This document shows positions 4,782 through 57,267 of a stretch of 64,000 nt of DNA, piece after piece. The notes beneath the pieces were generated by a model that saw only the letters and a program-made list of their open reading frames with translations, made no database searches and was not told the DNA's origin. Positions within the stretch are counted from its first letter, which is position 1, and every line of letters begins with the position of its first letter. Source of the stretch: Escherichia phage AV124; the sequence record OR352954; one strand, given 5' to 3'. A program made the position numbers and the translations under genes.

Positions 4782-4988
4782 ATGCGTGGATTTATGCCTT
4801 TGGTGAAACCTTTAGTAATCGTTGGAATAATTGTGGTAGTGGCGCTTTTTATTGTTGACACAGCAGATACCGTCACTCATAATTGTAAGCCTAACGGTGA
4901 GCAACGCCTTGCAAACAGTGCGGATGGCATTGTCGTTGAGAACAAACTGATCTGCGACGGTGGTCGCGTGAAGTGGTCTCGCTACTAA
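4782..4988 (+). CDS. small membrane protein (68 aa)
   Basis: RBS AAGGAGA; N-terminal hydrophobic helix. Confidence 0.55.
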   Translation: MRGFMPLVKPLVIVGIIVVVALFIVDTADTVTHNCKPNGEQRLANSADGIVVENKLICDGGRVKWSRY

Positions 4989-5023
4989 ATCCTGACTAAA
5001 TAATCTCAAGAGGAGAAAAACAA

Positions 5024-6112
5024 ATGACGATTACTCGCGGCCTTATCTTCGGGAAGTTTGCACCCCTGACCAACGGGCATATTGAATTCATTCGCCAGGC
5101 GGCTTCGCAGGTTAGTGCTCTGTACCTGTTCCTGTCATATGATCAGAAATTCGTTGATGCACAACCAGAATGGATTCGTCCAAAGCTGGGGCTTGCTGAT
5201 CGTTATCGTGACCTGCTGGATGTTATTGCCGATGAGGGACTTGACAACGTGAAGGTAGACTACGTTGATGAGTCGAATATCCCAGGATACCCTGAAGGCA
5301 GTGCTGCCTATGCAAAACTGATCCGTGAAAAGCAACCGTTCGTTAAGTACGATTTTGCTTTCTCTTCTGAGCCGGAGTATGAGTCTTACTTCAGTGAGTT
5401 CTTCCCTGAAGCGAAGCATGTAGTTATCGACGCAGAACGTAAAGCTGTTCCTATCTCAGCCACGATGATCCGTAATGATCCGTACAACAACTTCTACAAC
5501 CTAGCGTGGCCTGCACGTAAGCGCTTCATGAAGAAGGTTGCCATCATTGGTGTTGAGAGTACGGGCAAGACAACCCTGACAAAACATCTGGCGCATACCT
5601 TCGGTGCTGGTTGGATTCCTGAGATCGGACGGCTTATCTGTGAGCGTGAATATCACTCCAGTGAGTTCGCAATGTCTCGTGAAGACTACCTGCGTATCGC
5701 TATGGAGCACCGCCTGAAGGAGATGGAGTTGGCTGGTTGGGGTGATCGTGGGGTTATGTTCTCTGACACCACAAACCTGATCACACACTTCTCTGGTGTT
5801 TGTGCTGATAAGATCGACTACGCAGACCTGTTGTTCCGGACACTAAGCCGTGAAGAGAGCTACAACTTCTATGACCTGTTCCTGCTCCTCACACCAGAGG
5901 TTCCGTGGGTTGCTGATCCTCTTCGCTTGCAGGATACACCAGAGAAACGTAAAGAAACCCATTCTTTGCTTGACACAATGATCAGAGCATCTTACGATAC
6001 AAGCAAGGTGGTGGTTATCTCCGGCAGTGATTACGAAGAGCGTACTCAGAGAGCTGAAGAAGCTGTCCGTAAATTGCTGAATATCAAAGGAGAACAAGAT
6101 GGATCAAACTAA
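5024..6112 (+). CDS. bifunctional NMN adenylyltransferase / ribosylnicotinamide kinase (NadR-like, no DNA-binding domain)
   Basis: N-terminal nucleotidyltransferase motif GKFAPLTNGH (HxGH type); second half has P-loop IGVESTGKTT as in the NadR kinase domain; RBS AGAGGAG. Confidence 0.8.
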   Translation: MTITRGLIFGKFAPLTNGHIEFIRQAASQVSALYLFLSYDQKFVDAQPEWIRPKLGLADRYRDLLDVIADEGLDNVKVDYVDESNIPGYPEGSAAYAKLIREKQPFVKYDFAFSSEPEYESYFSEFFPEAKHVVIDAERKAVPISATMIRNDPYNNFYNLAWPARKRFMKKVAIIGVESTGKTTLTKHLAHTFGAGWIPEIGRLICEREYHSSEFAMSREDYLRIAMEHRLKEMELAGWGDRGVMFSDTTNLITHFSGVCADKIDYADLLFRTLSREESYNFYDLFLLLTPEVPWVADPLRLQDTPEKRKETHSLLDTMIRASYDTSKVVVISGSDYEERTQRAEEAVRKLLNIKGEQDGSN

Positions 6113-52785: not shown

Positions 52786-52859
52786 TGGAGCGTCTAGAGG
52801 GAATCGAACCCTACTCTGCGAGGCTTGGAAGGCCTGCGACACACCTCGTGCTTAGACGC
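52786..52859 (-). tRNA. tRNA-Trp (CCA)
   Basis: Anticodon arm AGGCC-TTCCAAG-GGCCT, T-loop TTCGATT; CCA encoded. Confidence 0.7.
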
Positions 52860-52866
52860 TTTAAAT

Positions 52867-52941
52867 TGGTGGGAGTATCTGGGATCGAACCAGAGACCTC
52901 TCGATTATCGGTCGAGCGTTCTACCGCTGAACTATACTCCC
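52867..52941 (-). tRNA. tRNA-Ile (GAT)
   Basis: D-arm GTTC-AGCGGTA-GAAC, anticodon arm CTCGA-CCGATAA-TCGAG, T-arm TCTGG-TTCGATC-CCAGA; CCA encoded. Confidence 0.8.
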
Positions 52942-53789: not shown

Positions 53790-53871
53790 TGGCGAAGGCG
53801 GCAGGATTCGAACCCGCATACTCCAATTACTCGATTAACGACGGGTTAGAAGCCCGTTGAGATACGCCCTC
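53790..53871 (-). tRNA. atypical tRNA-like gene (anticodon-like loop TCT, no recognisable D-arm)
   Basis: Acceptor GAGGGCG/CGCCTTC and T-arm GCGGG-TTCGAAT-CCTGC are clear; only one further hairpin ACGGG-CTTCTAA-CCCGT, followed by a 23-nt unpaired region; CCA encoded. Confidence 0.4.
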
Positions 53872-53966: not shown

Positions 53967-54148
53967 AGAAATCTATTTTGTGAAGTCCCGATGTCCTGAC
54001 AACCGCCGTTGTCTCTCCGAAGCGCCTCTACTTGCGAAGAAGAGCCTACGCCATCCCTTTCATCAACTTGATATCAAAGCCGACACAGAGATCACACCCC
54101 ACTAGATGCAGGAGATTTTAAGTGTTTCAGAACCTCGCAGAATAGATT

Positions 54149-54257
54149 TGGAGCAGGGTGGTGGAATCTAACCACCTATGTATTTAGCCATGCTGTTAGT
54201 TCTGGCATATTTTTCAGGTCTGGATGGACCTCGCGGTTGACAAACCGCCTACCCTGC
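54149..54257 (-). tRNA. oversized tRNA-like gene (109 nt) with internal insertion
   Basis: Acceptor GCAGGGT/ACCCTGC, D-arm GCGG-TTTGTCAA-CCGC, T-arm GGTGG-TTAGATT-CCACC; stem AGGTC/GACCT closes a 6-nt loop; about 37 extra nt before the T-arm; CCA encoded. Confidence 0.35.
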
Positions 54258-54259
54258 AT

Positions 54260-54334
54260 TGGCTTCTCGAACAGGAATCGAACCTGTACCGTCCCTATCG
54301 TGGGACCGCTCTAACCAAAGTAAGCTATCGAGAA
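54260..54334 (-). tRNA. tRNA-like gene with 6-nt anticodon-position loop
   Basis: Acceptor TTCTCGA/TCGAGAA, D-arm GCTT-ACTTTGGTTA-GAGC, T-arm ACAGG-TTCGATT-CCTGT; stem GTCCC/GGGAC closes loop ACGATA; CCA encoded. Confidence 0.5.
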
Positions 54335-54340
54335 ATTGTT

Positions 54341-54416
54341 TGGTGCTCGCAGTAGGACTTGAACCCACGACCTTCTCCTTACAAGGGAGTTGCTCTACCA
54401 ACTGAGCTATACGAGC
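54341..54416 (-). tRNA. tRNA-Thr (TGT)
   Basis: D-arm GCTC-AGTTGGTA-GAGC, anticodon loop CTTGTAA, T-arm GTGGG-TTCAAGT-CCTAC; CCA encoded. Confidence 0.75.
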
Positions 54417-54817
54417 AAGAAATGCTGTTTCCGATTAACAGCCTGGAGGAGTCAGTTAGCCATATCTTGTGAGCTAAGATCCTATATCCAGGATTTAAGT
54501 AATCAAAGAAATTTTAGCTTTATGGTTTAGAAGTTTCAAGTTTAAACATTAAGCTTTGAACGATAATCTTTGAATGCTGAATGTTGAAGTCTTTCGAATT
54601 CGCGATTCGACAATTTCGATCAAGCCGCATCATTGTGCGGTCTGACGGAAAGATATGTTTAAGTATCATCCTATACGATTATGTTCGGAGCAGTTTAACC
54701 TCCGGCCCCGGTAGAGGCAAGATGTTTCTGACTTCGCTAACCAAAAACAGCATTTAAAAACTTTACCAGCTATCCACAGGAATTACAAGATGTTAATCAA
54801 GAATTCCTGCAAATATT

Positions 54818-57186: not shown

Positions 57187-57264
57187 TTGGTGACCCCCGG
57201 AGGATTCGAACCTACCTACCTCTCGATTATGAGTCGATTGCTCATACCTTATGAGCTTGAGGGC
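57187..57264 (-). tRNA. tRNA-Met/Ile2 (CAT)
   Basis: Anticodon loop CTCATAA, T-loop TTCGAAT, acceptor GGCCCTC/GGGGGTC with wobble pairs; CCA encoded. Confidence 0.65.
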
Positions 57265-57267
57265 CTT

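Follow-up and report, generated by a model that had tools for sequence, protein, structure and literature searches.

A five-arm tRNA-like RNA in the tRNA array of Escherichia phage AV124 and its family in related phages

The tRNA array of Escherichia phage AV124 (sequence record OR352954, from which a stretch of 64,000 nucleotides (nt), referred to as the window, was analyzed) contains two adjacent genes on the minus strand that resemble transfer RNA (tRNA) genes: element A (109 nt, 54149-54257) and element B (75 nt, 54260-54334). From sequence comparison, element A is assigned to a conserved family of phage RNAs that appear to mimic tRNAs and have not been described before, whereas element B is a true tRNA-family gene of the Ile(GAU) type that has lost one base from its anticodon loop and one from its variable loop. 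The two elements differ in kind and do not form a pair: A is the real finding and B a minor curiosity. What is new is the five-arm family, while tRNA-like stable RNAs in phage tRNA clusters are known already. According to the original prediction, both genes have acceptor stems, T arms, an encoded CCA end and a 6-nt loop at the anticodon position (CATCCA and ACGATA), and all of this was confirmed on the minus strand.

A covariance model (R1), built from 13 sequences of the family described below (family A), describes element A as a five-arm tRNA-like RNA and scores it with 119 bits. Unless stated otherwise, conservation statistics for the family are based on 30 distinct sequences. The 5′ strand of the acceptor stem (GCAGGGT, 54251-54257) pairs with positions 54153-54159 of the 3′ end (54149-54159), which consists of the strand ACCCTGC, the discriminator T73 and the encoded CCA; all seven acceptor pairs are 100% paired in the 30 sequences, and five of them have changed on both sides. 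The D arm GCGG-TTTGTCAA-CCGC (54233-54248), with three pairs changed on both sides, can alternatively be drawn like that of tRNA-Sec, with a stem of six base pairs (bp) and the 4-nt loop TGTC. It is followed by the anticodon-position hairpin AGGTC-CATCCA-GACCT (54216-54231, loop at 54221-54226), a 5′ linker GAAAAATA (54208-54215; GAAAATA in most relatives), the fifth arm GCCA-GAACTAACAGCA-TGGC (54187-54206), a 3′ linker AAATACATA (54177-54185; GAATACATA in most relatives) and the T arm GGTGG-TTAGATT-CCACC (54160-54176), which is again 100% paired. The sequence inserted between the anticodon-position stem and the T arm, estimated at about 37 nt when the gene was first noticed, measures 39 nt and reads GAAAAATA-T, the hairpin GCCA-GAACTAACAGCA-TGGC and T-AAATACATA.

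Because the anticodon-position hairpins of A and B are each 16 nt long, their loops can have only 6 or 8 nt but never 7, and a canonical 7-nt loop was found in neither gene. In addition, the loop of A carries A33 instead of U33. RNAfold predicts the same structure for A as described above, with a minimum free energy of –40.2 kcal/mol (z = –4.6), and none of 200 shuffled sequences folds as well. T19 is combined with A56 in the T loop TTAGATT, giving a compensated elbow pair U19:A56.

Element A is not called by ARAGORN under default settings. No Rfam family scored above threshold for A when the window, the array or the short interval was searched, and RF00005 gave no match to it at E values up to 10. 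Its best Rfam match is tRNA-Sec (RF01852), with 22.1 bits relative to a threshold of 47. Global alignments with the tRNAs of the phage itself revealed no clear parent for either A or B; A aligned best with Cys, Leu and Gly. The idea that these genes contain introns, raised when they were first noticed, is not supported. In bacteria and phages, a tRNA intron is a group I ribozyme, and no Rfam intron (group I) match was obtained. With relaxed intron settings (-i), ARAGORN gives for A only a forced Trp(cca) with a 16-nt intron and mismatched anticodon and variable stems, and removal of the insert would still leave a 6-nt loop.

We defined family A by the acceptor stem, a D arm with A8 and T14, a 15-16-nt anticodon-position hairpin, a GAAAA(A)TA linker, a variable hairpin, a NAATACATA linker and the T arm. 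The copy in the window carries every one of these family-defining features. Members score 99-122 bits with R1, apart from one divergent metagenome copy (89 bits), while ordinary tRNAs reach at most 25 bits. Homologs were found as BLAST matches in 66 phage records, and a shorter form of 99-100 nt occurs in 126 rV5-type records; a few records are shared between these two sets, and the family is present in close to 190 database records. Pattern scans revealed further loci in viral and metagenome contigs. A pattern consisting only of the linkers, CTGAAAA-N(12-42)-AATACATAGG, proved too loose, since at least 120 loci matched it in viral contigs and none was a true member by R1.

Family A occurs with one copy per phage in all sampled genera of the Vequintavirinae and in one unrelated podovirus. 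Its members come from Mydovirus, Seunavirus (PVP-SE1, SSE-121, 4MG and GAP31), Henunavirus (Hena1 and SNUABM_01) and Vequintavirus (rV5) as well as from phage Av-05, and the podovirus is Salmonella phage UTK0002 (Schitoviridae), in which the copy lies inside that phage's own tRNA array. No obvious protein gene that could have been transferred together with the RNA gene is present at the UTK0002 locus. Directly upstream of this copy (UTK0002 record ~66260-66352, or ~130-222 of the extracted locus L146), we noticed an unannotated tRNA-like gene that starts with GGAAGAT and ends with ATCTTCCGCCA, like tRNA-Sec or tRNA-Ser, and has the loop TTTGAAC with the anticodon TGA. A bacterial origin of A was considered and rejected: a pattern combining the T arm and the linker of family A found no match in 185,579 bacterial and archaeal genomes.

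Comparison of the 30 sequences shows which parts of the RNA are maintained. In the four tRNA helices, 99.3% of all cells are paired, and 12 of the 23 pairs have changed on both sides. This value was reached by none of 500 shuffles, and sliding the partner strand by one to three columns left at most two such pairs. The elbow pair 19:56 is G:C in 20 sequences and U:A in the other 10, without exception: the D loop TTTGGCAA or TTTGGTAA is found together with the T loop TTCGATT (20 sequences), and TTTGTCAA together with TTAGATT (10 out of 10). The switch from G:C to U:A was probably a single event. All members have A8 and T14, as opposed to U8 and A14 of canonical tRNAs.

The most conserved non-tRNA feature of the family is its two purine-rich linkers (GAAAAUA and GAAUACAUA at the RNA level). 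The core of the 3′ linker, AATACATA, is invariant in 30 of 30 sequences, and the 5′ linker reads GAAAA in 29, the exception being UTK0002 (GTAAA). Between them, every one of the 30 sequences forms a fifth helix of 3-8 bp in the same position, for which 15 different stem sequences are used. Three types of this extra arm can be distinguished: a short stem with an A-rich loop of 12-14 nt (type I; the window, FENT2, Ro1, the Erwinia phages and UTK0002), a 5-8-bp stem with a loop of 6-12 nt that often contains TGGAG (type II; PVP-SE1, GAP31 and Mydo), and a 5-bp stem with a 5-nt loop in rV5. These types have been swapped between phages that are otherwise at least 92% identical. On this comparative model, the family A RNA is best described as a tRNA-like L plus one added arm that is kept under purifying selection. 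Given the covariation, the paired helices and the linkers conserved across genera, A is not a pseudogene.

In the databases, this gene is labeled as tRNA-Lys, tRNA-TERM / sup(tca), tRNA-OTHER, tRNA-???(atcc) or hypothetical protein, or it carries no label at all. Small coding sequences annotated as hypothetical proteins overlie it in several records, such as the Mydo RefSeq entry (4899-5100 of the extracted locus L001) and SSE-121 (185-268 of locus L004), and these are probably false protein calls. We also came across 18 records named "Campylobacter phage" with an rV5-type element at 99-100% identity and genomes similar in size to that of rV5, which suggests that they are misassigned rV5-like phages of E. 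coli. A full-text search of the literature found no description of the family A RNA. The genome paper of rV5 lists six tRNAs; the family A gene is absent from this list, and there is no other tRNA-Lys among the six.

In every family A member, the hairpin at the anticodon position comprises 15-16 nt, compared with 17 in tRNAs. It forms 5 bp and a 6-nt loop in the Mydovirus/Seunavirus clade and 4 bp with the 7-nt loop C-A-T-C-A-A-A in Henunavirus and UTK0002; in rV5 (TTTTTAA) and Av-05 (TTTATAA) it can be drawn with 4 bp and 7 nt, or, by RNAfold, with 6 bp and 3 nt. The 6-nt loop of A is shared by 15 distinct sequences. Within this clade, only positions 33 (A, C or T) and 34 (T, G or A) vary, while C32, C35, C36 and A37 are fixed, and the six alleles (CATCCA, CTTCCA, CCTCCA, CCACCA, CCGCCA and CAGCCA) share an NCC triplet. 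Nearly all members other than those of the rV5 and Av-05 group have A or C at position 33. The discriminator base tracks the triplet, with T73 accompanying NCC and A73 accompanying TTT.

The identity set of E. coli tRNA-Gly consists of U73, G1:C72, C2:G71, G3:C70, C35 and C36. Judged by E. coli identity rules, U73, G1:C72, C2:G71 and C35 C36 presumably make the RNA glycine-like, and the combination of A73 and UUU in rV5 lysine-like. Of the glycine features, U73, G1:C72, C2:G71 and the two C residues of the loop are present and fixed, the placement of the latter at 35 and 36 being assumed for a 6-nt loop.

Element A thus combines two sets of features. It retains everything that is read during tRNA maturation, namely the 7-bp acceptor stem, the discriminator, CCA, the T arm, the D arm and a covarying 19:56 elbow, and it has others that are incompatible with ordinary decoding: the short anticodon-position hairpin and the 39-nt insert with its two linkers and a swapped fifth helix. 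We propose that A would be cut out of the tRNA-array transcript, as its maturation features suggest, and would accumulate as a stable L-shaped RNA. Instead of serving as an adaptor on the ribosome, it could then mimic a specific tRNA toward a tRNA-binding protein, being glycine-like in this phage and lysine-like (UUU, A73) in rV5. The putative partner might be a host enzyme of tRNA-directed defense, a toxin or an aminoacyl-tRNA synthetase, which A would titrate or divert; our leading guess is that A acts as a decoy or inhibitor of a host tRNA-directed nuclease or toxin, perhaps after aminoacylation. Rapid changes at positions 33 and 34 beside fixed neighbors are what a conflict with a tRNA-targeting enzyme could produce. 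Phage tRNAs are known to neutralize tRNA-cleaving defenses (PMC11555353).

We advance this reading as a whole, with A as a tRNA-processed, L-shaped, non-decoding mimic and possible decoy and B as a former decoder of the Ile type, only tentatively and at somewhat less than even confidence. Most of that confidence lies on a processed, non-decoding tRNA mimic and much less on a decoy. Several points weigh against it. The argument for glycine or lysine identity leans on E. coli identity rules, and pair 3:70 is A:U or C:G, where tRNA-Gly has G:C. The coupling of the discriminator to the triplet would rest on essentially one evolutionary switch, and Henunavirus and UTK0002 (UCA, U73) as well as Av-05 (UAU, U73 or C73) fit no single identity. 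A hairpin with 4 bp and a 7-nt loop can be drawn for rV5 and the Erwinia phages; the rV5 loop contains U33, so that decoding is possible there. Finally, simple tRNA mimicry leaves the two linkers, the most conserved features, unexplained. A bolder version goes further: A would be the first phage-encoded non-decoding tRNA decoy, a modular scaffold with an anticodon-position loop and discriminator that imitate a particular host tRNA (Gly for the phages of Klebsiella and Salmonella, Lys for rV5). A defense nuclease or an aminoacyl-tRNA-modifying toxin of the host would be neutralized because A is charged or bound instead of the genuine tRNA, the fifth arm and the linkers would prevent A from entering the ribosome or hold a partner, and B, perhaps together with the C33 tRNA-Ile of the same array, would take part in the same conflict over tRNA-Ile. 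We regard this version as quite unlikely in its entirety.

The original prediction had also offered a tRNA-like decoy or regulatory RNA as an explanation. A non-decoding tRNA-like role, which may be that of a decoy or of a regulator, is indeed favored for A. As a trans-acting regulatory or scaffold RNA, A would work through the loop of the extra arm or through the linkers, by pairing with another RNA or by binding a protein such as an RNA chaperone, with the tRNA body serving only processing and stability; alternatively, A and B could be cis-acting punctuation for processing of the tRNA transcript. The cis version is in line with the tight packing of Thr, B and A, which are separated by just 6 and 2 nt, and a regulatory role with the fact that the linkers are the most conserved part outside the tRNA body and that the extra-arm loops fall into discrete conserved types, swapped between phages that are 92% identical elsewhere. 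Over 6-7 nt, the type I loop could pair with the anticodon loop of tRNA-Asn, but this complementarity is weak: it was reached by 145 of 2,000 shuffles for the window and by 42 of 2,000 at best, and with 42-280 of 2,000 trials overall we set this pairing aside as a weak lead only. Likewise, TGGA of the type II loops complements TCCA of the A loop, and in 4MG both have changed (TGGC and GCCA). This co-change is a single case in an arm that differs throughout, and loop-loop pairing fails for type I arms, including that of the window, in which the anticodon-position loop varies while the extra loop is constant. TGGAG also complements the 5′ strand of its own arm. A kissing pair TCCA/TGGA was consequently rejected as a general feature. 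A pure processing role would leave both the fixed C-N-N-C-C-A loop and the transfer to a podovirus unexplained. We consider this group of explanations unlikely.

Element A could also be an unconventional but working decoder, charged with Gly here and with Lys in rV5, that is used for recoding. Its 6-nt loop (8 nt if the closing pair opens) would shift the frame at GGN, the UCA of the Erwinia phages would read UGA, and in rV5, UUU on a 4-bp stem would give a nuclease-resistant tRNA-Lys. The complete acceptor stem, T arm, elbow features and encoded CCA of A agree with this possibility, as do the fixed C35, C36 and A37 next to a position 34 that varies like a wobble base, the discriminator that follows the triplet, the 7-nt loops allowed by the rV5 and Henunavirus forms, the lack of another tRNA-Lys in the rV5 list and the annotation of the gene as tRNA-Lys or suppressor in some records. 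An anticodon arm of 15-16 instead of 17 nt in every member speaks against it, however, and so does A or C at position 33 in nearly all members outside the rV5/Av-05 group. A triplet that differs by genus (NCC, UCA, UUU, UAU) would be odd for conserved recoding, the window phage already has a canonical tRNA-Gly, and the 39-nt insert is, to our knowledge, longer than any class II variable arm. Nor did a recoding site come to light, although no search was aimed at one. A decoding role appears decidedly improbable to us. Decay of recently acquired, functionless copies, the degenerate tRNAs of the original prediction, is very improbable overall and plausible really only for B, whose slot is dispensable, being empty or refilled in relatives, and whose loop drifts between 6, 7 and 8 nt; gene finders, moreover, disagree on both elements. 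For A, this explanation is excluded in practice by 30 sequences from several genera and two phage families with 12 compensated pairs, the 19:56 covariation and the linkers. For B, the compensated pairs 2:71 and 7:66 and a T arm identical across genera argue against decay. Next to no weight falls on sequencing or assembly errors in canonical tRNA genes. One UNVERIFIED record (GE_vB_MG) has obvious indel errors in this region, but the same loops recur in independent isolates and metagenome contigs, and restoring one base would still leave the 39-nt insert of A and the 3-nt variable loop of B. Error is excluded because B is found in five independent loci and the 6-nt loop of A in 15 distinct sequences.

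To place the preferred reading of A as a non-decoding tRNA mimic among known systems, we compared it with other unusual tRNA-like RNAs. The small RNAs at the distal end of the phage T4 tRNA cluster, species 1 (rnaC, 139 nt) and species 2 (rnaD, 119 nt), occupy a similar place, and species 1 is the closest analog. The T4 order is Thr, Ile, segB, Arg, rnaD, rnaC; here it is Thr, an Ile-like or Arg gene, A and a structured spacer of ~180 nt. Like A, rnaC has in its predicted fold an acceptor-like terminal stem and a canonical T arm (CCGGG-UUCGAAU-CCCGG), which is directly preceded by an extra hairpin. In contrast to A, it lacks the D arm and the anticodon-position arm, and rnaD does not look like a tRNA. 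Homology to these RNAs was rejected, as R1 with filters switched off gave 6.9 bits (E = 1.3) on rnaC and nothing on rnaD; the similarity in gene order may be fortuitous.

Like A, tRNA-Sec (RF01852), class II tRNAs and allo-tRNAs have a long arm that separates the anticodon arm from the T arm. Two further points recall tRNA-Sec: in one possible drawing, the D arm of A has a 6-bp stem and a GG-containing loop of 4 nt, and the loop of Henunavirus and UTK0002 (C-A-U-C-A-A-A) is one base away from the tRNA-Sec loop (C-U-U-C-A-A-A). On the other hand, A has acceptor and T stems of 7/5 instead of 8/5 bp, U73 instead of G73 and UCC instead of UCA, and its match to RF01852 stays far below the threshold (22.1 versus 47 bits). 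Class II variable arms start 1-2 nt from the stems. Family A differs from tRNA-Sec and class II tRNAs in its anticodon arm of 15-16 nt and its insert of 30-39 nt with long, conserved, single-stranded linkers. The tRNA-like domain of transfer-messenger RNA (tmRNA) and the module of the Y RNA YrlA resemble A in that an acceptor/T-arm or elbow module recruits tRNA-handling proteins for a non-adaptor role. However, tmRNA has no anticodon arm and carries an open reading frame, and YrlA has no free CCA acceptor end, whereas A has the full cloverleaf plus an additional arm and its locus gave no Rfam match.

The proposed function has its nearest parallel in canonical phage tRNAs that counter defenses, such as tRNA-Tyr of T5 acting against the retron Eco7 PtuAB and tRNA-Lys of T1 and T7 acting against PrrC170 (PMC11555353). 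These tRNAs are, like A, phage-encoded and located in tRNA-rich regions, and they provide a tRNA-shaped molecule in a conflict over host tRNAs. A conflict of this kind would be expected to make the A loop vary among close relatives, as it does at positions 33 and 34. They differ in that they have 7-nt loops, are able to decode and take the place of host tRNAs that have been cleaved, whereas A would act as a decoy or inhibitor. We know of no such decoy RNA described before.

Phage tRNA arrays are now seen as weapons against tRNA-cleaving immunity, and only normal decoding tRNAs have been shown to act in this way. Family A is present in widely used model and therapeutic phages, among them rV5, PVP-SE1, Av-05, Mydo and isolates of the BASEL collection. 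Together with its covariance model, it provides a defined set for asking what non-adaptor tRNA mimics do during infection, the same question that species 1 and 2 of T4 have posed since the 1970s. Our results also correct the annotation of this gene, for which "suppressor tRNA" labels may raise needless concern in phage therapy candidates. Moreover, A is a natural scaffold, a tRNA body that tolerates a large insertion while the elbow is kept.

Element B (54260-54334, minus strand) was identified as a tRNA-family gene by ARAGORN and Rfam. It consists of a 7-bp acceptor stem (TTCTCGA/TCGAGAA), a D arm GCTT-ACTTTGGTTA-GAGC with GG in the D loop, an anticodon-position hairpin in which 5 bp (GTCCC/GGGAC) close the 6-nt loop ACGATA (54296-54301), a variable loop of 3 nt, a T arm ACAGG-TTCGATT-CCTGT, and G73 followed by the encoded CCA. 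RNAfold gives the identical 6-nt loop, and ARAGORN reports the gene as "tRNA-???(ga)", with a two-base anticodon. RF00005 matches it with 39.8 bits (threshold 29) when the short interval is searched alone, while larger searches missed it. Its anticodon arm departs from the canonical form (5 bp and a 7-nt loop with U33 and a purine at position 37), and the variable region has 3 nt compared with the canonical 4-5. The identical sequence is found in five independent loci, metagenome contigs included. The loop of B corresponds to the loop motif of tRNA-Ile(GAT) at 52867-52941, shortened by one base. In this tRNA-Ile gene itself (minus strand, Rfam 69.4 bits), we noticed the loop C-C-GAT-A-A, with C33 at a position where U is nearly universal.

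The slot between tRNA-Thr and A is occupied differently among the relatives. The same gene is present with the 6-nt loop ACGATA in the Klebsiella/Mydo group including the window, with 7-nt loops in PVP-SE1 and SSE-121 (AAGATTC) and in KE22 (ACGATTC), and with the 8-nt loop ACAGATCC in Csp-D17. Phages 4MG, GAP31 and FENT2 have tRNA-Arg(GCG) at this place and NDO71 an aberrant gene, and the slot is empty in K54lambda and the Erwinia phages. By this distribution, the slot is dispensable. GAT is retained in every version of B and U33 in none. Comparison of the window with PVP-SE1 reveals compensated changes at 2:71 and 7:66 in the acceptor stem and no difference in the T arm, which indicates that the body of B is under selection while its loop length drifts. 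Going by its sequence, B is probably a non-decoding or decaying copy of the Ile(GAU) type. Its body may be retained for joint processing of the tightly packed Thr-B-A precursor, given the very short distances between the three genes. As a further point against our reading of B as a former decoder, its intact stems and hypervariable loop might equally be the outcome of selection acting on the loop instead of decay. The tRNA-Arg(GCG) found in the B slot (252-325 of the extracted 4MG and GAP31 loci, L005 and L006; also in loci L141, L143, L147 and L151) has the loop CTGCGCA with a pyrimidine at position 37, and its anticodon stem shows compensated changes between phages. The anticodon GCG is unusual for bacteria.

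The window is part of a Mydovirus-like myovirus of the Vequintavirinae whose close relatives include KPP-1 and VLCpiM5b, which are Klebsiella phages, and Proteus phage Mydo. Identity is ~96% over 85% of the length of the array region, and the A/B locus is 99.5% identical to KPP-1. ARAGORN and Rfam place more than 20 tRNA genes in this minus-strand array, which extends over roughly 50.9-57.3 kb; at the relaxed ARAGORN setting, 22 of them are canonical, and 21 of these 22 have U33. Directly upstream of B lies a canonical tRNA-Thr(TGT) (54341-54416, minus strand; Rfam 69.8 bits, also called by ARAGORN), with spacers of 6 nt between Thr and B and 2 nt between B and A. In Mydo-, Seuna- and Henunavirus and in Av-05, tRNA-Thr(TGT) is usually found on the 5′ side of B or A as the adjacent gene, but not in rV5 or Ro1. 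A promoter-like site further upstream (TTGAAA-17-TAAAAT, 54511-54539, minus strand) matches the consensus at 10 of 12 positions and is a possible candidate for the start of a Thr-B-A transcript, as we infer from its sequence and position. The canonical tRNA-Gly(UCC) mentioned above is encoded at 52786-52859 (minus strand; relaxed ARAGORN and Rfam). This tRNA-Gly(TCC) gene and a second tRNA-Met(CAT) (57191-57265, minus strand) were missed by ARAGORN under default settings and found only with the relaxed threshold or by Rfam, so that the array holds more tRNA genes than the default call suggests. A further tRNA-like gene (53793-53871, minus strand), not called by ARAGORN, matches Rfam with 34.9 bits and has a loop of the Arg(TCT) type (CTTCTAA); its D region is irregular and its variable region long.

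A spacer of 182 nt (53967-54148, minus strand) separates A from tRNA-Leu(TAA) and gave no Rfam match. It adopts a multibranch fold closed by AAUCUAUU/AAUAGAUU (z = –3.0), in which 65 pairs are kept and 9 have changed on both sides in an alignment with the Erwinia phages and Raoultella phage Ro1. This spacer may represent a second stable non-coding RNA beside A, similar to the arrangement of rnaD and rnaC in T4. Other Vequintavirinae carry different spacers at this place, mostly of 170-210 nt.

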